A stretch of 63,982 nucleotides of DNA, counting the filler, from Basidioascus undulatus (lineage: Eukaryota): assembly GCA_000826855.1 (NCBI GenBank). It is 13 parts of 13 records of this genome, joined end to end, with 100 filler letters (N's around TTAATTAATTAA, not from the genome) between each part and the next. Parts side by side here need not be neighbours in the genome. Positions count along the whole stretch, not along the records: positions 33,451 to 57,564 come from JTLS01000248.1; 12 more parts are not named here. The stretch is one strand, 5' to 3'. Made by a program: the position numbers and the translations under genes. The notes below the pieces were generated by a model. That model saw only the letters and a list, made by a program, of their open reading frames with translations, was not told the DNA's origin and ran no database searches. This document shows, piece after piece, positions 3,258-61,000 of the stretch. The stretch's first letter is position 1, and each line of letters opens with the position of its first letter.

Positions 3258-3357
3258 NNNNNNNNNNNNNNNNNNNNNNNNNNNNNNNNNNNNNNNNNNN
3301 NTTAATTAATTAANNNNNNNNNNNNNNNNNNNNNNNNNNNNNNNNNNNNNNNNNNNN
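3258..3357. other. Artificial contig linker (N44-TTAATTAATTAA-N44). Identical linkers at 6613-6712, 9966-10065, 13316-13415, 16663-16762, 20009-20108, 23349-23448, 26688-26787, 30023-30122, 33351-33450, 57565-57664, 60891-60990
   Basis: Twelve identical 100-nt N-runs with a central six-frame stop oligo; genes are cut at these points. Confidence 0.99.
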
Positions 3358-4095: not shown

Positions 4096-6712
4096 ATGTC
4101 CGTCCACGCTTCCTTTCCCCCCTTTTATTTTTGAGCTTCTAACCCCGCGTCTTCATCTCAAGCAGGTCCCGTCCAGCTCCCCAAGACCGTCTTTCGTCCC
4201 CTCCCCCCAAAACCGCATTGCCCCTCGATCCCGACCGCACGCGCACTATACTTAATCCCCTCCCGCATCTCATCGGATACCCGGAAACTCCCATTCCATC
4301 GTCCCATCGCACACACAGCAGCACACCACACCGCATCTGATTTCTCTGATTTCCCCTCGGACTCTCTTCCCCTTATATCATCTCATCTATCATCGCATTG
4401 TTCGTTTCCTCTCCCTCCCTTCTTCGCTACTTCGTTCGTTGTTTTGTCATCCCCGCTTCCGCTTCCTCTGCTTATCGTTTCCCGTGCGGCGCCCAGCAAC
4501 TCAGCGGCAGTGTGCCGCTGGGGCGCGCTTGAACCTTGGACTGTGTGGACGTTGTTATACAGTTGTCTTTTTGCATGTGCGCGCTGTTGTGTGGGTGTGG
4601 GTTGGCAGAGTGGGGTGGTACGTCGAGGTTGTCGGCACTTAAACTTACCCGACAGACTTACCCGACTAGATGAACTACGACCTTATACACTTTGAGCTGA
4701 CTGGACAGAACGCAGACAGGTGTAGTTCACGACACCCGCATAAACATGAATGTACTGCAGTCACTCTGCAATCGTTCACCATATCACCCACTCTCACCGC
4801 CGCAACAGCAGCCTCGCCTGTGACCGCACTGGTATACAGCGCCCCTTGAGCTTCTTCCATCCTACTGCACATCGCGCGGCCCACCTCAGCGTCAGTGAAC
4901 TTGCTCAGCGCCGCAGGAGAAGCACGCATCCCACTCACCTCGACAGCTGCGCAGAACGCACGACTCCGCATCGCAGCCGTAGCGCAGGGGAAGCAGATCC
5001 TAGAACTCACGCATCGCGCTGCAGTCCTGCCCCTCCCCAGTGACGGCCATTCGTCAAGTCCTGGGCAGGTTGACGCTGAGGATGCTCGGCACCGTCAACA
5101 GGGGAATTTTGGTATCTATAAACGTACAGAAAATAAAGGGTTTGAGGCTTACCACTCAACTTCGCTCGTCCCGGCGATAGGGCAGGCCTGCGCCCCGCTG
5201 GAACACAGCGCCTCGGTGCGAGCGGCCAGAGAACGCTTGGAAAGCGGCGCGACGCACGCGCTGGGGAGTGTGGTTCAGCCTAGAACAAAAGAGATCAGTT
5301 TCCCTGTGGACAAAGCTGGCGATCGAGGTAAAAGGAACGTACCCATCATCGAGCCGTTCACGATGTCAGGCGAGCTGCATGTTCCGCAGCTGCCATTCGG
5401 GTCTGCGGGGGGTGGGCGAAAAGTCTAATATCAGTAACCCCTTCCGACAATGTGTTAAACAGGAACTACACAAAAGGTGTACTGATTCTCCCCCGAGCAG
5501 TTGCTCGCGACCCAATACGCCACCTCCCCGCCCGCGGCCTGGCGCGAGCGCAGCGCGCGTGCCGCAGCCGTGCGGCGGCTGACCATCTCGGCCTGCGCGC
5601 GGCGCTGGCTGAGCGCGGAGCAGTTCCCGCCGTACAGGGCCCAGGCGAGGCACGGCGTGGATGAGCCGACGTAGTTGTTGCAGAAGGACTGGCAGGACGA
5701 GATGGTGGTGGCAGTTGTGGAGGTGGAGAGGTGGTGCGCGGAGATGAAGCAGTCGGAGGGGTATTTGGATACGGTGAGGTCTGAGGGTCAGCTGTGTGGC
5801 CTAGTGATCTGCCGCGGGAATAGGCGCAACACTCACACAAAATCGACTCGCAGGAAGTTTGGCAAGCGGTGTTGTCGGTCGTCGCGTAGGATGCCAGTCT
5901 GTCCCGACATCAGTGTAAGCCCGCTTCGCTCCTCAGGTTCTGTGGCAGATGCAGAGTTAAATACTGCTTACGGGTTAAGATATGGCCAGCCGCTTGGAAC
6001 GCCATAGCCTTGGCCATATTGGTAGTGCTGTGTCGACTACGCAGCGGTAGCGTCGAGGTGGTGTTCGTAACCGCAGCCGTCGCATTGTGATAAAGGCTGT
6101 GGTGATCCGTACGGGAGTCAGGCAAAGTGGACAGACTGTTGTCAATGAGGAATCCATTCAGTGGATGCATAGACAGCGTAAGACCACTGCAGAAGGAGTG
6201 GCCAACCGCTCATGACAGGGCCGAGCATCGTCTGGCACAGCTTGGTACAGCCTCACCGGGATGCTGTACTTGGGGGCGATCTTGAAAGACTTCACTGAAT
6301 GGAGACCACCCCTCCCTGATAGTCAAATTTGCCTTGAAAGCAAACGCCCTGGGAGGCCGCGCGTTACCGAAGAGCGGCGCTGCGGCTGTGGGCTTCGTAG
6401 AGCATGACGACCAGGGCAACTGGCAGACCGTAAACCACAAGGCACACAGTTGTGCTGTAAAATATTTTAAGCCTCGTAATGTAGGGCTCAATCTATCCAT
6501 GATCGCCTGACTTCTGCCAATCGACTTGGACTGTGACTCACACGTTATTGTGATGCGTTAACGAGTAGGCAGGCGTGGAGGTTGTGAAGAAGCCTTGGCA
6601 GTGATGCTGGGTNNNNNNNNNNNNNNNNNNNNNNNNNNNNNNNNNNNNNNNNNNNNTTAATTAATTAANNNNNNNNNNNNNNNNNNNNNNNNNNNNNNNN
6701 NNNNNNNNNNNN

Positions 6713-9965: not shown

Positions 9966-12900
9966 NNNNNNNNNNNNNNNNNNNNNNNNNNNNNNNNNNN
10001 NNNNNNNNNTTAATTAATTAANNNNNNNNNNNNNNNNNNNNNNNNNNNNNNNNNNNNNNNNNNNNTCAGGTCTCCCATGGTGCGCTTCACCACCTACGCC
10101 TCGCCCGCCTCCCCCCGCTCCCGCCAAGGCTCTTGTGCCGCTCCCTCCAGCTCCGGCGGGGATCTCCTCCCGGCTCAGAAGAGTCCCCTTCCGCCACCCG
10201 CGCCGAGTTCGAGCGATGCACACTCCCGTTCACGCGCAGCGTCTCGAGGTTGCGTCTTGGCTTGCGGCGGGAAAACGACATAGACCACGGGGCGCTGTCG
10301 GCAGCGTCGTCTGTGTCGGCAGGCCATGTCGCCCGCGGTCCGGGTGGGGGTGGGAGAACGAGGGTAATGGGATGGGCGTGACGGGTGGAAGATGGAGAAG
10401 GCGCCGGAGAGGGCGGAGCACTCTTAGGAGAAACGGCGCTTCAGGGTGAGGATTTCGAGCTCGAAGGGCGGGAGGATGTGGCGCGTGATGGCGGGTTTGG
10501 GCTGGGAGGGTGAGGATTCGAGGACTTGTGTCTCGTTCATTGTTGCAATGGGTTCTGTGGGCGCGACGAAGCCACTGGAGAGAGCAGCGCTGTGAACGTC
10601 GCTGCTTAGCGGTGCAAGGGGCATGGGCGAGAAGAGTGCCCAGCAAGTGCGTATCTTTAAGGTGCAAACACCATGATAAACCTTCGTGTAACCAGCCGGA
10701 AGATTTGTGGGACTCTAGATACCGCATGTCTACTCTTCCGTTCCGAGTGAGAAGACACGCCGGCTGCGGCTCAAGTCGTTCATTCCGTCTACACGACCGC
10801 GGCCACGCCTTTCGTGAGTCTCACGCAGTCATACTGGAAAGACTTGGACCTCTTTGGGCGCTCGAGAGATTTTATAGGCTTTAATTTGCGTACTGTTAGG
10901 CGACAGCGCAGAAGAGAGCATAGACTGCAGGGTTTCGGGACTCAGTGCTGGGCAGCTGTCAGCAGTTAGAACGGGGGAGGGTGATCGACCAGAGCCAGTG
11001 CCCAGACCATTTCTTATAGAAAATACAGTTTATACAATGTTCTGCAAGTGAGTAGGTTTTCCAATCAGATGTGTTCCATCCTTATGAGTCGCTGCAAATC
11101 ACGCATGGGGAGAACCGAGCAACCTGAGAAAACGACCAACCAGTCTTCTTGAGCTCCATCCAACCACCTTCCTCGACAGTCTGTGAGATGTAACAGTTTT
11201 AATAAGATGAATCTAAGGCCGGCCATTCGCACCTGATGCGCCAGCTGCTGTTGCTTTGTGAGCGCCACTTTCACGCTACCGGACGACCATAAACTCATCC
11301 GCACCGTAAATGCGCCAGCTGTACTCGCTTCCCTCCATTTTTTTTTCTTAATATTAATTGCAAGAGCAAATGCATTATTATTAATTTTTTGTAACGTCCA
11401 AGTAGTTGGGGCATGGGCTGTAACAAACTATAGGAAAAGACCGACCCTCATTGTGTTGTCAATTGCGTCTGCGTCTGTGCGGACAGCCCCGTCTGCACAT
11501 CGCCTTTCATTTCTCAATTCTCTTTTGCTGGCGGCCACGCGGCGGCTCCACGTGCCCCGGTGGCTTCGGCCGGGATGGACCGGGCGGGATTAGCTTGGCC
11601 TCGAGCCGATCGCATCACCGCCCCGGCCCCCGGGCCATCGGCTCCATTCCCTGGCTCGCGCTGGCCATTGGAATGATCGTGCTCGCTGTTGCGGTGCACT
11701 CTATTGCTATTTATAGGCTCCAGGTGTCCATGCACGAGTCTGACTTCTTCACCTTTAGTGAGGATAGACTTTGGGGTGTATTTGAAAGTACTTTTAGTGA
11801 TCCTCTTCCAGATTCTGGCTCTCTGGATCACTGCAGCTGTACATCGGCTGCTGCTGCGCTGCAGTATGGCTGCTCCGGCACTTGTGTTTTGCACCACTAG
11901 CTTGATGAGATGGCCTCAAGACTTGTATATAGCATTGAATTTATGTTCTGATGACCTTGAATGTGGATCACCTTGCCTTCTGCCTAGCACATGGTTCAGT
12001 TGACAAAAACCAGCTTTTGAGCACCTTGACTTTGGTACACCTGCAAGGGGAGACTGTTGTTCTTGATGAGGCTTGTCTGATTGAATCCTACAAGTTGGAT
12101 ATAGGTTAATGGCTAATATTTAAGGTGGAAGTGGATAAAGGAAATGGTGACAGTGTAAGAGCCTGCTGTTGCGTAACCTCTTCACCCTAGCATTCCCAGT
12201 TAACAGTTCATGGCTGCGGATAACAGTCTGACTAAACTACACTCAGAACTCTGATGTTTAGTGTATCCGTACAGCTTGCTGCCTACTCTGTCCGATTTCA
12301 ACGGAGACGGCAATTGGACTGGAACAAAGCCTCATGAGACATTCTGAAAGCAATTCTGACGAGCAGGACCTCTATGTACTTGGAGGGTTACCGAAACGAT
12401 GCATTTAAACATATCTCAAAAGACAGGCAGCATGCACAGCCTGTACATCACTGCACTGCAGGTGCACTGGCTGATGCGAGTTGTTCAGTTTCATGGCCAC
12501 CGACGCATGCACGTTTTCCAGAAGTCCCAGATTGTGCTCTTTGACATGGGAAAGGAATTATAACAGTTAAATAATGAACATATCTTTGTCGCAGCCTCAT
12601 TCCTTCCGTGCAGGACACAAGTATGTGGTGATCCGCTGGTTACTGCCGAGGATGACCGCAGCTGAGAATGGTCTCCTGTGGTAGATCAGCTCCAGTGTGG
12701 TGTAGTCTCAATGTTGAAAGGATTCAAGCTCTCCTCAGTTCTCCATGACTATGATGCTGACAAAAGGCAACATTAAACCATAAGGCCTGCCTGACCGTCA
12801 CGTAAACAGTGCGCAGCGTCGGCCGCCCATCAATCTTGCCAGAGGAGACCTCATTCTGCAAGTCAGTAAGATCGGCTGGGAACTTGAGGATTTTTCACAA

Positions 12901-13469
12901 TGATCCAATCAGGACCAAGCTTGGGGGTATTCTAATCCTCCCCGAGCTGCTAGCATTGCCGCAGGTCCTGGGATCCTGAGCTCAGCCCCAGCCTCATTCC
13001 TCTCAATGCCTGCTGAACAGGGAGCCTGAACCTTCAAGATTCTATGTCCAAGCAAGCATTTCATATTTTATCAGGTTGAATACAAATAGGAGCATAATCA
13101 GAAAGCGGAGGAGGGAGGGGGCAAGGCCGGGGAGGCATTGCAGGAGGGCAGGAGCCAATCGGCGGAAGATCGGAAAAGCGCAAGCTATGTAGAGTGACTA
13201 GGTGTACGAGGAATATGGCGATAGGGGAAGTGAGAGTAACATTTCAGAAGAGAGGGAAGGAGGGAAGGAGGGAAGGGGGGAAGGGGGGATGTGAGTGAAG
13301 TGGGTGGGCCTCACGNNNNNNNNNNNNNNNNNNNNNNNNNNNNNNNNNNNNNNNNNNNNTTAATTAATTAANNNNNNNNNNNNNNNNNNNNNNNNNNNNN
13401 NNNNNNNNNNNNNNNGATGAGGGACAGGGGAAGAAGGGAGGGGGGTTCTTATACTGTGGAGAGACAAAG

Positions 13470-16662: not shown

Positions 16663-16762
16663 NNNNNNNNNNNNNNNNNNNNNNNNNNNNNNNNNNNNNN
16701 NNNNNNTTAATTAATTAANNNNNNNNNNNNNNNNNNNNNNNNNNNNNNNNNNNNNNNNNNNN

Positions 16763-20008: not shown

Positions 20009-20108
20009 NNNNNNNNNNNNNNNNNNNNNNNNNNNNNNNNNNNNNNNNNNNNTTAATTAATTAANNNNNNNNNNNNNNNNNNNNNNNNNNNNNNNNNNNN
20101 NNNNNNNN

Positions 20109-23348: not shown

Positions 23349-23448
23349 NNNNNNNNNNNNNNNNNNNNNNNNNNNNNNNNNNNNNNNNNNNNTTAATTAA
23401 TTAANNNNNNNNNNNNNNNNNNNNNNNNNNNNNNNNNNNNNNNNNNNN

Positions 23449-26687: not shown

Positions 26688-26805
26688 NNNNNNNNNNNNN
26701 NNNNNNNNNNNNNNNNNNNNNNNNNNNNNNNTTAATTAATTAANNNNNNNNNNNNNNNNNNNNNNNNNNNNNNNNNNNNNNNNNNNNCGCCGGGCCGGCT
26801 TGCAG

Positions 26806-30022: not shown

Positions 30023-30122
30023 NNNNNNNNNNNNNNNNNNNNNNNNNNNNNNNNNNNNNNNNNNNNTTAATTAATTAANNNNNNNNNNNNNNNNNNNNNN
30101 NNNNNNNNNNNNNNNNNNNNNN

Positions 30123-33350: not shown

Positions 33351-33450
33351 NNNNNNNNNNNNNNNNNNNNNNNNNNNNNNNNNNNNNNNNNNNNTTAATT
33401 AATTAANNNNNNNNNNNNNNNNNNNNNNNNNNNNNNNNNNNNNNNNNNNN

Positions 33451-33567
33451 GGCCCCTTCCCGCTCCTGTATCCCCTCCTGTTGCCCATTAGCGGCCCTTC
33501 TCGCTCCTGTACTCTACCCCTCCTGTTGCCTATTAGCGGCGTCGCATGCAGAGCTCTTAACGCCTAA
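33451..33567 (+). repeat. Direct repeat, copy 1 (second copy at 37769-37840)
   Basis: GGCCCCTTCCCGCTCCTGTATCCCCTCCTGTTGCCCA..GCGTCGCATGCAGAGCTCTTAACG occurs at both sites; copy 1 has an extra internal tandem unit. Confidence 0.85.
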
Positions 33568-34179: not shown

Positions 34180-34186
34180 TATTTAA
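34180..34186 (+). promoter_or_regulatory. Putative TATA box of the micro-exon gene
   Basis: TATTTAA lies ~65 nt upstream of ATG 34251, which is in a CAAAATG context. Confidence 0.45.
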
Positions 34187-34250
34187 GAAGCACCGCAGTT
34201 TTGCCAGCCTCTTTTCAGCACACTCTCGAAATCATTGCCGAGCTCCCAAA

Positions 34251-36322
34251 ATGCGTTCCTCCACTCAGACCCTCTTCGTCCTCGTAGCCATTGCTGTGTC
34301 TGCCTCAGTCGAGGTCCTCGCCCTTCCGCAGGTGAGTGTTGCCCTGCCGAATCCTGAGTTACAACGAGGCACTGACGCTGGTGGTGGTATCCTGACCGTC
34401 TCAGACCGTACGTGTTTCCCTGCTGAGTCCTGAGCTTACAACGAGGCACTGACGCGGGCCATCGTCTCCCTGTCGTCTCAGGCCGTACGTGTTTCCCTCC
34501 TGAGTCCTGAGCTGCAACGAGGCACTGACGCAGGCCGTCGTCAACCCATCGTCTCAGAGCGTACGTGTTTCCCTCCTGAGTCCTGAGCTGCAACGAGGCA
34601 CTGACGCGGGCCATCGTCTCCCTATCGTCTCAGGGAGTACGTGTTTCCCAGCTGAGTCTTGGGCTTACAACGAGGCACTGACGCGGCCATCGTCTCCCCA
34701 TCGTCTCAGGCCGTACGTGTTTCCCTCCTCAGTCCTGAGCTTACAACGAGGCACTGACGCGGGCCATCGTAACCCCATCGCCTCAGAGCGTTAGTGTTTC
34801 CCTGTTGAGTCCTGAGCTTACAACGAGGCACTGACGCGGGCCATCTCTCCCTATCGTCTCAGGGAGTACGTGTTTCCCCGCTGAGTCCTAAGCTTACAAC
34901 GAGGCACTGACGCAGGCCATCGTCAACCCATCGTCTCAGAGCGTACGTGTTTCCCTCCTGAGTCCTGAGCTGCAACGAGGCACTGACGCTGGCCATCATC
35001 TCCCTATCGTCTCAGGCCGTACGTGGTTTCCCTGCTGAGTCTTGAGCTTACAACGAAGCAATGACGCGGGTCGTGGTATACCGACCGTCTCAGTTCGTAA
35101 GTGTTTCCCTCCTGGGTCCTGAGCTTACAACGAGGCACTGACGCGGGCCCTCGTCTCCCCATCGTCTCAGTGTGTACGTGTTTCCATGCTGAGTCCCGAG
35201 CTTATAACGAGGCACTGACGCGGGCCATCGTCTCCCCATCGTCTCAGCGCGTATGTGTTTCCCTCCTGAGTCCTGAGCTGCAACGAGGCACTGACGCGGG
35301 CCATCGTCTTCCCACCGTCTCAGGACGTACGTGTTTCCCTCCCGGGTCCTGAGCTTACAACAAGGCACTGACGCTGGTCGTGTTATCCTGACCTTCTAAG
35401 ATCGTACGTGTTTCCCTGCTGAGTCCTGAGCTGCAACGAGGCACTGACGCTGGTCGTGGTATCCTGACCGTCTCAGTTCGTACGTGTGTTTCCCTGCTGA
35501 GTCCTGAGCTGCAACGAGGCACTGACGCGGGCCATCGTCTCCCTATCTCTCAGGGAGTACGTGCTTCCCTGATGAGTCCTGAGCTGCAACGAGGCACTGA
35601 CGCGGGCCATCGTCTTCCCATCGTCTCAGAACGTACGTGTTGCCCTGATGAGTCCTGAGATTGAGGCACTGACGCGGGCCATCGTCTCCCCATCGTCTCA
35701 GACCGTACGTGTTTTCCTGATGAGTCCTGAGCTTACAACGAGGCACTGACGCGGGCCATCGTCTCCCCGTCGTCTCAGGCCGTACGTGTTTCCCTCCTGA
35801 GTCCTGAGCTGCAACGAGGCACTGACGCGGGCCATCGTCTCCCCGTCGCCCCAGAGCGTATGTGTTTCCCTGCTGAGTCCTGATCTTCAACGAGGTACTG
35901 ACGCGGGCCATCGTCTCCCTATCGTCTCAGGGAGTACGTGTTTCCCTCCTGAGTCCTGAGCTTACAACGAGGCACTGATGCCGGCCATCGTCTCCCCATC
36001 GTCTCAGGACGTGCGTGTTTCCCTGCTGAGTCCTGAGCTTACAACGAGGCACTGACGCGGGCGATCGTCTCCCTATCGTCTCAGACCGTACGTGTTTCCC
36101 TCCTGAGTCCTGAGCTACAACGAGGCACTGACGCGGGCCCTCGTCTCCCCATCGTCTCAGTGTGTACGTGTTTCCCTCCTCAGTCCTGAGCTTACAACGA
36201 GGCACTGACGCAGGCCATCGTCAACCCATCGTCTCAGAGCGTACGTGTTTCCCTTCTGAGTCCTGAGCGGCAACGACGCACTGACGTTGGTCGTGGTATC
36301 CTGATTGTCTCAGGCTTCCTAA
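34251..36322 (+). CDS. Micro-exon gene: small secreted peptide of 54 aa from 27 exons, 25 of them single codons
   Basis: Exon 1 is 34251-34331 (27 codons, signal peptide, ends phase 0 at CAG|GTGAGT). 3-nt exons: 34405 ACC, 34482 GCC, 34558 AGC, 34634 GGA, 34710 GCC, 34787 AGC, 34863 GGA, 34940 AGC, 35016 GCC, 35094 TTC, 35171 TGT, 35248 CGC, 35324 GAC, 35401 ATC, 35477 TTC, 35554 GGA, 35630 AAC, 35702 ACC, 35779 GCC, 35855 AGC, 35931 GGA, 36008 GAC, 36085 ACC, 36161 TGT, 36238 AGC. The last exon is 36314-36322 GCT TCC TAA. Confidence 0.85.
34332..36313 (+). repeat. Tandem array of 26 intron units (69-75-nt intron + 3-nt exon, ~77-bp period)
   Basis: Consensus GTACGTGTTTCCCT(G/C)CTGAGTCCTGAGCT(TA/G)CAACGAGGCACTGACGCGGGCCATCGTCTCCCCATCGTCTCAG+NNN. 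Confidence 0.97.
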
Positions 36323-57194: not shown

Positions 57195-57664
57195 GGTGTG
57201 ATAAGGAAATCGCATAGGGCGGCTTGGGGAGCGCGATGAGGTGAATAATGGGGACACGAACAAGACGAACCCAGTGAAGCAGGCTTTTATGTAGATAGAA
57301 AAAGAAAACACTGCATTTCAAGGTGCACACATGGCTGCAGAGCAATGCAGAGCGGAGTCTGTTGCGCAGGCAGGCCCGCCGGCACCGCGGCAGCCTCCCC
57401 GACAGCCCCCTCCCTTCTTTGACCTCGGACCGGCATCTCAAGTGCCTTGCTTTCCCTTAAGCCATTTTTCCCTCAATCCACCCCGGCAGCTTTCTTTTCT
57501 CTTCAAGGTGCGCTTTATCCAGCTCTGTCTCCCCCTTCTTCTTCTTCTTCTCTCATCCATCCCANNNNNNNNNNNNNNNNNNNNNNNNNNNNNNNNNNNN
57601 NNNNNNNNTTAATTAATTAANNNNNNNNNNNNNNNNNNNNNNNNNNNNNNNNNNNNNNNNNNNN

Positions 57665-58048: not shown

Positions 58049-61000
58049 GGCTGGCTGGCGGTGTGGGGGGTGTGGGACGGGAGGGCGCGTGTGCGCTACG
58101 GATCAGACCAGGCCGACTTTCTCCTGGAAGCGCTCTGAGAATTAAGACGCTGGGGGGACTAGGAGGAGGAGGAGCGGAAGACGATGGCGGTGGGATGGGA
58201 TGGAGGAAGCCAGAGCTGGAGCGAGCGGGCGCGCGCGCATGCCAGAGTGCGCGACGTGGCCCCGCCCATTCGACGAAATCGCCAAACAGTCGCATTTCTC
58301 GTTTCTCCTTCTCCCTTCACAACACTTCGCATTACTGACCCATCGCCCCTTCGCATTCCAAGCCATATATCGGACTCTTTCGGAAAGATCAATTTCAATT
58401 TAATATTTCTTCTCGAGGCCACCCTGGTACACCCTCACCCTGGCACGGCACTGCACCTGTACTGCTTCGCAGACCACAATACCTCCTCCTTCGAGCCTGG
58501 ATAGAGAGACGCCGCGCTGCAGTTTCTCTGTTATGTGGATTTGTTCTAGTTTTCAGGCGCTCGTCAAGGCTGAGGAAAAAATGTCGCCGCAAATGCGGGG
58601 CGGTAGGGGAGATCCGTCGGGCGGTGGCTGCGGGGGTCGTTCGTGTGTGGTTTCCTTTATCATCTTCATGCCCAATGTATCATAACGACCAATCCCCCAT
58701 ACCTTCTACATTCCGGTGGCACCTGACTGGGCATTCCCAGCCTGCAAATGAGCGCCGTACTTCCGGAAAGTGTGCAAACGCTGAGCTGCCTTGTCAAAGT
58801 GCAGCTCTACAGAGAGCCAACAACCCCGGCCAAGCGGTCAAGCAGCGGCGCATTCCCAAGACCGCAAGTTGTGGTCTGCTGAGGACGCTTCCGGAGGCGT
58901 TCGCATTCTCTGCAGGGCTGCCGTGGTACCAAGCAGGAACACGCTGATGCAGGGGCCGTTTCTCAACTCAGCACGCCCGCCGCCGCAGTGCTGAATTGAG
59001 GATATCTCTCCTCCTCCTCATGTACAACCTTAGATCCGTGTTCCTGAAATTAAATCCGAATTCACGAGGTAGATTAACCAAAGATACTCCGCTAACGGCG
59101 AGATCGCCGGCCGAAACCGGAAATGACTGTCGAGCAGCAGCCACGCAGAGAGCAGCCCTCGCACGCACACAGGTACTGTATGAATGGCCAGGCCGCTCAG
59201 AGATATTTTAAAATATGAAGTACTAGAAAAATAACACAATACAAGAAAGATGTAAAATACTAAAAGACCACTTAACTCAAGTCATTTTCGGGGCGCACAG
59301 GGTGCGCAGCCGCGGTAGTCGCTGGCGGGGCACGTTTTTTTCGTTCCGAACAGCGGTCCCCGGGAGTACAACAGGAATCCTTCGAAGCAAAGAGCTGCAT
59401 TGCCCTCCTTCTTTTGGAAAGCAATCACATGTCATGCGGTGTTGTCCGCGACGCTGTCCCAAACGTACAAGCAGCCACACGCATGCCCTTCGAGCGACTT
59501 GCAGGACCGTCTTCTTTGCTCTTCGAGCTCTTCGGCTTTTATCAAGAGATAAAAAGTATGGGCAGGAAGTATGGGCGATGGCGAACAGTGGTGTGAATTG
59601 TGGGCGTGTGGGAGTGTCCCGGCGAGGGGGAGGGGGACGAGGAACAGATGGGCGTTGGGGTTCGGAGGACCGTCTCAGAAAAGGGTGGAAGTGTCTGGGC
59701 TGCTTTGGAAACTTGCAATAACTTGACTGTCGGTAGTATTGGTAGTATGGAAGACCGCGTATTCCTCAGGAAATGCAAGGGGCTGTCGCGGTCTGCGTGG
59801 GGAGATACGTGCGTTCCTCCATTCGTCTTCTTCCTTTTGATGTAGGCCGACATGGAGGACGCGATAAACATGGGTGTTCTCCCGCACCAAACTACCTCTT
59901 CCCAAGCCTCCCCCTCCTCCTGCCACGGCGGGGGCGAGGAAAGGGGTGAAGCCCCCACCCCGCAGGGCTCGCTTGATGAACCAAAAGTTCCGAGTAATTC
60001 TGACAGCTGTAGCGCCCCAAGGAGACCAGACACCGCAACTTCCTTGTGGACAAACAGGTTGCGCTGCCGCTGCCTCGGGAATCGAAAAGGACTTACACAA
60101 TCGTGAACAAAACTCTCAAAGAGGAACCTCATAAAATCAAGCTGTCTTCTGTACAGTTTAGGACAACGCCGACTTTTGTCTCATTCTCTCCCATGCAACA
60201 CAGAGCGTGCGAGTTAAACTTGCATAAGCAGCTCGTAGCGGAAGCTCTGGAGTTTCCTCCGACTCATCAACGTTTCCGGGGTAGAAAGAACAATATCACT
60301 GGGATTGTTGCACAGGAATTTATTCTGATCTGGGTTGAAGTGTGAGCAGCATTTCGAAGATAATTCAGCTGCCGGGCTTCCTGGGACGTGGCGCACGCTG
60401 CACACTGGCGAAGTTGCTTTTCATAAACACGTAAAGCCGACTTTGTTTCCGAGGAACATGATAGGTGGGCCGCAAGTTACGTCATAAAGCGTGGCAAATG
60501 AGGTATTCTCCTTGACGGCATCTTTTTTGAGAAGTGCAGGTGGGAAAGGCTGTACTCTTGGGTTGCTTCGCGAAGTATTCCAGTGTCAGGAAAACTGCCA
60601 GGCATAAGTACCTATGATCTGGTTCAGAGGATCCCAAGAAAACAAACGGCACACCGACGTGATATACCAAAGTTTTTGCGTCTCTTTGCGCCCACCACGC
60701 TAGACGTATGTTCTCCTTCCGATTCGCATGCCTCCGTGGAAGCTTCTATGAAAAAGGTATACATGGCTACATATTCGGAGACCGGCAGGGGATTCCTTCA
60801 AGATGGCGAAATGTCAGCCCGAGCGCTTTTGGGAACGTTAAGAATTGTCGAGGAGCATCGACGCAAAGACCCCCCCCCCCCCCCCCCCCCNNNNNNNNNN
60901 NNNNNNNNNNNNNNNNNNNNNNNNNNNNNNNNNNTTAATTAATTAANNNNNNNNNNNNNNNNNNNNNNNNNNNNNNNNNNNNNNNNNNNNCTAGCAGTTC

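Follow-up and report, generated by a model that had tools for sequence, protein, structure and literature searches.

A gene composed almost entirely of exons one codon long can be read in the genome of Basidioascus undulatus (assembly GCA_000826855.1). The window, by which we mean the whole stretch of DNA that was analyzed, comprises 63,982 nucleotides (nt), and the gene lies on its plus strand at positions 34251-36322, within the piece taken from record JTLS01000248.1. It consists of an 81-nt first exon, 26 introns, 25 exons of a single codon each between them, and a last exon with two codons and TAA. We regard it as probable, with appreciable room for doubt, that the locus is spliced and translated as read. 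Taking this explanation together with the arrays found in metagenomes, we favor to about the same degree the view that one-codon-exon arrays occur in a wider class of fungal genes to which this one belongs.

Gene anatomy and splice signals

The first-pass annotation of this DNA, made from the sequence alone, had placed the run of one-codon exons at 34405..36240, and its coordinates and counts agree base for base with our re-reading. Its statement that all introns are in phase 0 and that every internal exon is one sense codon holds as well, with 25 of 25 spacers fitting. Upstream of the gene, the TATA-like motif TATTTAAG (34180-34187) lies 64 nt 5′ of the ATG and, on direct reading, would represent the core promoter. 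Exon 1 (34251-34331) comprises the ATG, in the context CAAAATG, and 26 further codons that resemble a signal peptide; it ends in phase 0 at CAG/GTGAGT. The last exon begins with 36314-36322, that is two codons and the TAA at 36320-36322. All of these features are on the plus strand.

The array proper (34332-36313, plus strand) contains 26 intron units and, in between, the 25 one-codon exons, which we call array exons here to set them apart from exon 1. Intron 1 (34332-34404, 73 nt) is followed by array exon 1 (34405-34407), intron 2 (34408-34481, 74 nt) by array exon 2 (34482-34484), intron 3 (34485-34557, 73 nt) by array exon 3 (34558-34560), intron 4 (34561-34633, 73 nt) by array exon 4 (34634-34636), intron 5 (34637-34709, 73 nt) by array exon 5 (34710-34712), intron 6 (34713-34786, 74 nt) by array exon 6 (34787-34789), intron 7 (34790-34862, 73 nt) by array exon 7 (34863-34865), intron 8 (34866-34939, 74 nt) by array exon 8 (34940-34942) and intron 9 (34943-35015, 73 nt) by array exon 9 (35016-35018). 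Intron 10 (35019-35093) measures 75 nt, a multiple of three (3n), and contains one in-frame stop; it precedes array exon 10 (35094-35096). Then come intron 11 (35097-35170, 74 nt) and array exon 11 (35171-35173), which is the first Cys codon, intron 12 (35174-35247, 74 nt) and array exon 12 (35248-35250), intron 13 (35251-35323, 73 nt) and array exon 13 (35324-35326), intron 14 (35327-35400, 74 nt) and array exon 14 (35401-35403), intron 15 (35404-35476, 73 nt) and array exon 15 (35477-35479), intron 16 (35480-35553, 74 nt) and array exon 16 (35554-35556), and intron 17 (35557-35629, 73 nt) and array exon 17 (35630-35632). Intron 18 (35633-35701, 69 nt), ahead of array exon 18 (35702-35704), is the only 3n unit without an in-frame stop, and its retention would add 23 residues in frame. 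The remainder is made up of intron 19 (35705-35778, 74 nt) with array exon 19 (35779-35781), intron 20 (35782-35854, 73 nt) with array exon 20 (35855-35857), intron 21 (35858-35930, 73 nt) with array exon 21 (35931-35933), intron 22 (35934-36007, 74 nt) with array exon 22 (36008-36010), intron 23 (36011-36084, 74 nt) with array exon 23 (36085-36087), intron 24 (36088-36160, 73 nt) with array exon 24 (36161-36163), the second Cys codon, intron 25 (36164-36237, 74 nt) with array exon 25 (36238-36240), and intron 26 (36241-36313, 73 nt), which abuts the last exon. Unit lengths thus vary (73 nt in 13 units, 74 nt in 11, 75 nt and 69 nt in one each) and add up to 1,907 nt, yet the spacer between two units is 3 nt long in all 25 cases.

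All 26 introns begin with GT and end with AG. The donor is GTACGT in 20 of them; the others have GTATGT (introns 13 and 21), GTGAGT (intron 1), GTTAGT (intron 7), GTAAGT (intron 11) and GTGCGT (intron 23). The acceptor is CAG in 25 of the 26, with AAG in intron 14 alone. In 24 of the 26 units a branch motif, CTGAC, precedes the 3′ end by 28-29 nt, among them at 29 nt in introns 1 to 4, 6, 8, 9, 11 to 13, 15, 17, 19 to 21 and 23 to 26, and at 28 nt in introns 5, 7 and 16. Variants are found in intron 10 (AATGAC) and intron 22 (CTGATG). The near interchangeability of donors and acceptors that had been claimed for this array is borne out by these frequencies. With a GTRNGT-like donor, a CTRAY branch motif, a YAG acceptor and a host-typical length, the units would qualify as fungal U2-type introns. 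The introns of the sugar-transporter gene on the same piece, read directly, have the same size and signals.

As a repeat, the array is described by Tandem Repeats Finder with a period of 77, 25.6 copies, 85% matches and 2% indels, which places it among minisatellites. A 13-mer of the unit occurs 26 times in the window, always inside the array, versus 2.67 occurrences expected. A splice pattern spanning three units finds 12 matches versus none in 100 shuffles, and the chain that they form is the only one of its kind in the window. On neither strand did a scan for open reading frames (ORFs) find a frame that is open through the array; the longest ORF that touches it has 148 codons for amino acids (aa). 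Because no frame is open across it on either strand, the array is not a coding repeat that is read without splicing.

Growth of the array

When the 26 units are aligned, the three spacer columns have entropies of 1.65, 1.82 and 1.23 bits, and most intron columns have 0.5 bits or less. The pairwise difference per site is 0.60 for the triplets versus 0.13 for the introns, so that the triplets are 4.7 times more diverse. Within the unit, the half from donor to branch motif is nearly invariant and the half from branch motif to acceptor occurs in a few types. If the nearest relative of each unit is chosen by its intron 3′ half, the following codon is the same in 10.8 of 26 cases versus 2.2 expected; the corresponding choice by the intron 5′ half is uninformative with respect to the preceding codon (2.7 versus 2.2). 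Copies of a cassette formed by an intron 3′ half and its codon are seen in the four GGA units, in three AGC units and in both TGT units.

Since repeated codons go with the intron 3′ half that precedes them, the array is seen from the sequence of its units to have grown by duplication of this cassette. In the simplest history, unequal recombination inside the near-invariant 5′ half of the unit would be the probable route of duplication, and each event would gain or lose whole codons and keep the frame. Cassette gain and loss in DNA is directly supported by this evidence, and better so than exon skipping, as a source of variation.

The unit itself seems unstructured: the fold energies of six of the 26 units (z from -0.60 to +0.81) are no better than those of shuffled sequences. 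A search of Rfam returned no match inside the array at E values up to 1. An array of intron-hosted small nucleolar RNAs (snoRNAs) or microRNAs (miRNAs) was considered and rejected, given the lack of an Rfam match and the shuffle-like folds of the six units. No copy of the unit was found in the other 62 kb of the window.

One-codon-exon arrays in metagenomes

A generic pattern was defined from splice signals only: a donor followed, at intron spacing, by two rounds of acceptor, three free bases and donor. Scanned against metagenomes, it finds at least 129 loci (L001-L129). Because coding repeats also match this pattern, we added a specificity filter that demands at least four distinct triplets and no ORF through the chain. 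Arrays were then defined by at least six triplets of at least four kinds. This array filter is passed by at least 42 chains on at least 30 loci, which amount to at least 36 non-redundant arrays with 496 triplets. The longest runs among the matches listed contain 37, 33, 31, 27 and 27 consecutive 3-nt exons. Examples of array loci are L123, L042, L056, L036 and L062, with near-identical introns of 60-70 nt.

In the arrays among the matches listed, none of the 496 triplets is a stop in phase 0, versus 19.4 expected from composition (P = 2.5e-9), and the stops in the three frames number 0 of 496, 12 of 460 and 77 of 460. Phase 0 is free of stops in all 37 arrays (at least 36 from metagenomes and that of the window), and both other frames are interrupted in 31 of the 37. 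As the out-of-register readings hold 12 and 77 stops, every array can be assigned to phase 0. The diversity pattern of the window array recurs too: triplet diversity exceeds intron diversity by a factor of 1.6-5.7 in all of the 14 largest arrays listed, and within arrays of the class the introns differ by 11-39%.

Prokaryotic genomes (596 Gb) served as a control. The generic pattern matches 89 loci there (L130-L218), mostly serine-rich repeat genes of Streptococcus and also of Enterococcus. No prokaryotic chain passes the specificity filter, an ORF running through 65 of 65, versus at least 53 metagenome chains that do pass. Of the metagenome chains listed, half are likewise plain coding repeats whose triplets are identical and through which an ORF runs uninterrupted. 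The raw splice-signal pattern is thus unspecific by itself, being matched by coding repeats. A set of 16 long loci (L021, L069-L075, L088, L094, L103, L104, L115-L117 and L121) is mutually 77-87% similar; the 13 that were parsed have one identical triplet of CAA/CAG type with an ORF through it and are coding repeats, not arrays.

The metagenome arrays fall into several intron families, none of them related to that of the window, and blastn shows no similarity between the unit of the window and any metagenome locus listed (at least 129). For L001, L028 and L036, introns differ as much between loci (0.12) as within an array (0.11-0.12), although these contigs may be fragments of the same loci. 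The modal intron length is 3n in six of the 36 arrays listed versus 12 expected, the arrays not being independent of one another, and 57 of 118 3n introns in the arrays among the matches listed contain an in-frame stop. Adjacent identical triplets are weakly enriched in the arrays (50 versus 40.8 ± 5.5).

Arrays joined to genes

The junctions between arrays and ordinary exons were read by eye at L052, L062, L068, L042, L015 and the L001 family, as an automatic search for first and last exons proved unreliable. At L052, an exon with a ULD_2 domain, an ordinary intron of 52 nt and a second exon give 130 codons without a stop, and this join ends in phase 0 at the first donor of the array. It is for L052 only that continuity in frame between an array and a domain-bearing exon is shown. 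At L068, the array passes in phase 0 into an ordinary exon of 46 codons with similar composition. At L062 (plus strand, about position 996) and L100 (minus strand), the first one-codon exon reads ATG, and directly upstream lies an intron unit's 3′ half. The initiation codon may here form a 3-nt exon of its own, downstream of a leader intron. In the case of L042, a stop closes the frame of the array where the last exon begins; an ORF with a HET domain has its ATG about 95 nt further on.

Four arrays have domain-bearing neighbors on the same strand: NACHT/NPHP3_N at L015 (3269-4639, minus), HET at L042 (1-1377, minus), PigL_N with ULD_2 at L052 (1020-2080, plus) and a protein kinase at L062 (5198-5512, plus). 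We take three of these four domain types to be those of fungal non-self-recognition proteins.

The edges of some arrays look old. At L015, at L068 and in the paralogous loci L001, L028, L036 and L076, the introns at the array edge are unique and diverged and still flank 3-nt exons. The four paralogous loci share a 3′ end (L001, minus strand, 800-1615; L028, minus, 300-1250; L076, minus, 250-1150; L036, plus, 1800-2358) that is made of six one-codon exons and a conserved short last exon. Four of these six old one-codon exons are identical at all four loci, while the introns around them carry substitutions and indels. Upstream of this shared end, the repeated arrays of the four loci encode unrelated peptides.

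A search with the L068 exon led to P0001, a protein of 126 residues from a 1,185-nt contig of a Logan assembly. Aligned to L068 by tblastn (reverse strand, 1376-1875), it covers the end of the penultimate array intron, the last one-codon exon and the ordinary exon. The predicted last array intron of L068, 58 nt long, is missing from P0001 exactly, and two ordinary introns downstream are also gone. Three other matches to the L068 exon run straight through the introns, as genomic ORFs do. In the simplest reading, which is one of sequence comparison, P0001 would be a partly spliced transcript from a relative of L068. It suggests that a downstream intron can leave before its upstream neighbor.

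Predicted peptide and coding evidence

We propose that a filamentous fungus encodes a genuine protein at the window locus and that the product would be a small secreted peptide. The first exon would supply the start codon and signal peptide, the last exon would add two codons and the stop, and the rest of the peptide would be written in 25 successive one-codon exons between copies of the same spliceosomal intron of about 73 nt. The spliced mRNA, with 27 + 25 + 2 codons, would encode a pre-peptide of 54 residues. Cleavage would leave about 33-35 residues with one possible disulfide, the two Cys codons being array exons 11 and 24.

The peptide of exon 1 has one Arg, a hydrophobic core of 10 residues and then the small residues S-A-S ahead of the likely cleavage site. 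Its hydropathy over nine residues reaches 3.46, and from this value and from reading the profile is like that of a signal peptide. The 25 array codons are of ten kinds and specify Ser five times, Ala and Gly four times each, Thr three times, Phe, Cys and Asp twice each, and Arg, Ile and Asn once each. A motif of four residues, T-A-S-G, recurs in the array peptide. The two Cys codons are 13 codons apart. A precursor of repeats processed by Kex2, or of a ribosomally synthesized and post-translationally modified peptide, was rejected as a candidate. Such a precursor would have dibasic cleavage sites between repeated core peptides, and tailoring genes close by, but the 25 array codons specify a single Arg and lack Lys, and Pfam shows neither a UstYa-type nor a tyrosinase domain on the piece that carries the gene.

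Protein databases were searched with two ORFs that read through introns. The 60-aa ORF that starts at the ATG has no relative in the range of 33-105 aa and the 127-aa antisense ORF in the array has none in the range of 69-223 aa, although such blanks do not show absence.

Several observations weigh against a spliced and translated gene. Considered by itself, the window locus shows little coding signal: a set of 25 stop-free triplets is within chance (P about 0.3 with uniform bases, about 0.7 with the composition of the array itself), and the finding that seven of the ten distinct codons are top or near-top among their synonyms, relative to the Pfam-supported ORFs of the window, reaches P = 0.08 only. 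The mRNA would need 26 successive splicing events, retention shifts the frame for 24 of the 26 introns, and intron 10, which is 3n, brings in a stop. P0001 could come from a genome that lacks the three introns in question. It also still carries the array intron ahead of the last one-codon exon, and array introns may, to judge from this protein, be removed slowly or incompletely. Arrays of one intron family encode unrelated peptides, and the peptide may be little constrained. Finally, simple duplication alone leaves the contrast between near-saturated triplets and a 13% difference between introns unaccounted for.

Proposed splicing route

In the proposed route, transcription would begin at the TATA-like promoter and each unit would be recognized across the intron, its donor pairing with the nearest branch site and acceptor. 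As a 3-nt exon is too small for two spliceosomes side by side, the introns would be removed successively, and any order of removal would give the same mRNA. Stepwise splicing, which the first-pass annotation had offered as its alternative to a peptide library, is therefore likely on steric grounds.

Work on other fungi provides the background. Short introns of ascomycetes are paired across the intron, between nearest sites, and the mean intron of A. nidulans measures 73 nt (PMC6616335). In Coprinopsis cinerea, 27 exons of at most 3 nt, in 26 genes, are included in transcripts (10.1101/2024.05.10.593147), and the lipS gene of Dactylellina haptotyla has two 3-nt exons (PMC5639578). Outside animals, intron retention rather than exon skipping predominates (PMC6142364, PMC12861292).

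Alternative explanations

The locus could be a neutral minisatellite, expanded either from DNA outside genes or from a small gene's only intron, and it would then not be expressed as a peptide or would belong to a decaying gene. Its period and its 85% matches are typical of tandem repeats, the lack of stops in 25 triplets carries no significance alone, and no database relative of the read-through ORFs came to light in the length ranges searched. A repeat of this kind fits poorly with three adjacent columns of peak variability that are bounded precisely by AG and GT, both invariant, with splice signals kept in all 26 units and with an array in phase behind an exon that provides an ATG and a putative signal peptide, a stop following directly. 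The same design is also met elsewhere, with no stop in the 496 triplets of the arrays listed and with in-frame joins to domain-bearing exons. We hold a neutral minisatellite to be unlikely, though not negligibly so. It is very improbable that the introns are the point of the arrangement, whether by releasing intron-derived RNA or by timing or gating expression, with the triplets as mere open spacers. Mere spacers need not be 3 nt long, in phase 0 and free of stops; the window gene has its own putative signal-peptide exon, and neither the folds (z from -0.6 to +0.8 in six units) nor Rfam (E up to 1) point to a functional RNA. What speaks for such a role is the unusual invariance of the donor-to-branch half, the unrelated peptides that arrays of a shared intron family encode, and the array frame of L042, which ends about 95 nt before the HET-domain ATG, where a leader would sit. 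A further proposal concerns the origin only and is compatible with the explanation we prefer: a mobile, introner-like intron would have inserted beside itself, each time adding 3 nt, for example by a 3-bp target duplication. The likeness of introns between loci as within arrays (L001, L028 and L036) and the almost absent overall correlation of codons with intron relatedness (r about 0.1) would suit it. Yet the contigs in this comparison may be pieces of the same loci, the rest of the window (62 kb) contains no copy of the unit, and a 3-bp target duplication should place identical triplets side by side, for which the enrichment is only weak. The unit is moreover of ordinary length and unstructured, unlike the introner-like elements described in PMC3609843, and the cassette linkage fits recombination. 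This origin we consider quite improbable.

The first-pass annotation had itself advanced a peptide library, in which the sites of different units pair freely and subsets of the one-codon exons are skipped, so that one locus yields a large family of secreted peptides. Its structural premise stands, since all internal exons are one phase-0 sense codon and any skip is neutral to the frame. Donors and acceptors differ little between units (GTACGT in 20 of 26 introns, CAG in 25), all 37 arrays from the metagenomes (at least 36) and the window are stop-free in phase 0, and phase 0 is the only phase in which the loss of a unit, in DNA or RNA, never creates a chimeric codon. Exon skipping in the micro-exon genes (MEGs) of schistosomes rests on cDNA evidence. 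These genes are a precedent for secreted variants (10.1101/2023.06.21.545858). Free pairing is nevertheless at odds with intron definition in ascomycetes, by which nearest sites are joined, 73 nt being a typical intron size (PMC6616335), and exon skipping is described as uncommon outside animals (PMC6142364, PMC12861292). In old one-codon exons, the codon is the same at the four paralogous loci, which fits constitutive inclusion, and a pair of Cys codons 13 codons apart points to a defined peptide. A library produced by skipping seems improbable to us. Because of ascomycete intron definition and the conservation of the old one-codon exons, our analysis leans towards one main isoform.

Phase 0 in all arrays is nonetheless what a design tolerant of skips or indels needs. 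In a wider reading, the arrays would be a fungal device for hypervariable peptide segments that change in steps of whole codons. Cassettes would be duplicated, lost or exchanged in DNA, and interchangeable sites would in addition be paired alternatively in RNA. Fungi would employ the device in secreted peptides, such as that of the window, and also in tails or leaders of proteins for non-self recognition, given that HET, NACHT, ULD_2 and HeLo-like (PigL_N) domains adjoin metagenome arrays. Since every array is in phase 0, variation at both levels would be harmless. Taken as a whole, with all of its parts, this reading is unlikely.

Genomic context

The window is made of 13 joined pieces with an N44-TTAATTAATTAA-N44 linker at each junction. 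The linkers lie at 3258-3357, 6613-6712, 9966-10065, 13316-13415, 16663-16762, 20009-20108, 23349-23448, 26688-26787, 30023-30122, 33351-33450, 57565-57664 and 60891-60990. Because the pieces are joined, gene neighborhood across linkers is meaningless. Pieces 1 to 10 measure about 3.23-3.26 kb each and are arranged by descending size.

The gene is carried by the piece at 33451-57564 (24,114 nt) and starts 800 nt into it. Pfam identifies a sugar transporter (Sugar_tr), p450, a zinc alcohol dehydrogenase (ADH), Fungal_trans_2 (a transcription-factor domain specific to fungi), a chromo domain and an F-box on this piece, and by these domains the host is a fungus. Matches to LIM, GH63 and CUE are on other pieces of the window and hence are not neighbors of the array gene. 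The ORFs that flank the gene (33.4-39.3 kb) have no Pfam match, and nothing recognizable was found within 3 kb. At the start of the piece there is a direct repeat of 45 nt (33454-33540) in two copies with 86% matches.

Significance and comparison with known systems

The literature searched, subscription-only papers aside, contains no description that we could find of one-codon exons in succession or of introns repeated in tandem within coding sequence. Provided that splicing follows our reading, the gene would combine the shortest possible coding exons with the longest run of them on any record found. It would also be a natural substrate for studying the splicing of abutting introns, that is the order of removal, steric limits and the placement of exon-junction marks. 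Coding sequence could then grow codon by codon through minisatellite-like dynamics without the frame ever being broken. Gene finders and RNA-seq aligners cannot place 3-nt exons, and for this reason a class of fungal genes, some with HET, NACHT or ULD domains, is probably missing from annotations or truncated in them.

In design, the MEGs of Schistosoma are the closest known system. Their products are secreted, an ordinary first exon is followed by symmetric micro-exons of 3n length, and they form families of fast-evolving small proteins (10.1101/2023.06.21.545858). In the window gene, too, ordinary exons at either end enclose consecutive micro-exons that are symmetric (3n). As far as that account goes, MEGs, which belong to an animal, have exons of 3-81 bp and long, unrepeated introns of up to 5 kb, whereas in the window gene all the micro-exons have 3 nt and the introns are tandem copies of 69-75 nt, in a fungus.

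Recursive splicing and spliceosomal twin introns resemble the array in that abutting sites are used in successive reactions under intron definition (PMC6616335). Their steps leave nothing behind or complete a disrupted signal, whereas each step in the window gene would leave a 3-nt exon.

In mechanism, the closest systems are isolated fungal 3-nt exons, intron gain by tandem duplication and introner-like elements. The exons of at most 3 nt in C. cinerea and in lipS of D. haptotyla indicate that fungal splicing can include a 3-nt exon, as the sources cited above describe them. They sit singly in ordinary genes, whereas the window gene has 25 in a row (up to 37 among the metagenome loci listed) between introns that are mutual copies. 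When introns are gained by tandem duplication, a segment with splice signals is similarly duplicated, as in the potato RdRp gene (PMC4974935). Such events account for less than 1% of intron gains in Z. tritici (PMC4457414). The known cases are single events, in contrast to the 26 copies of the window, with one codon per copy. Introner-like elements are families of near-identical spliceosomal introns that decay into ordinary introns (PMC4457414, PMC3609843), and the unique introns at the old array edges of the metagenome loci are comparable to this decay. The elements, as described in those papers, are dispersed in unrelated genes, longer than regular introns and predicted to be structured, whereas the window unit is local, of ordinary length and, in the six copies folded, unstructured.

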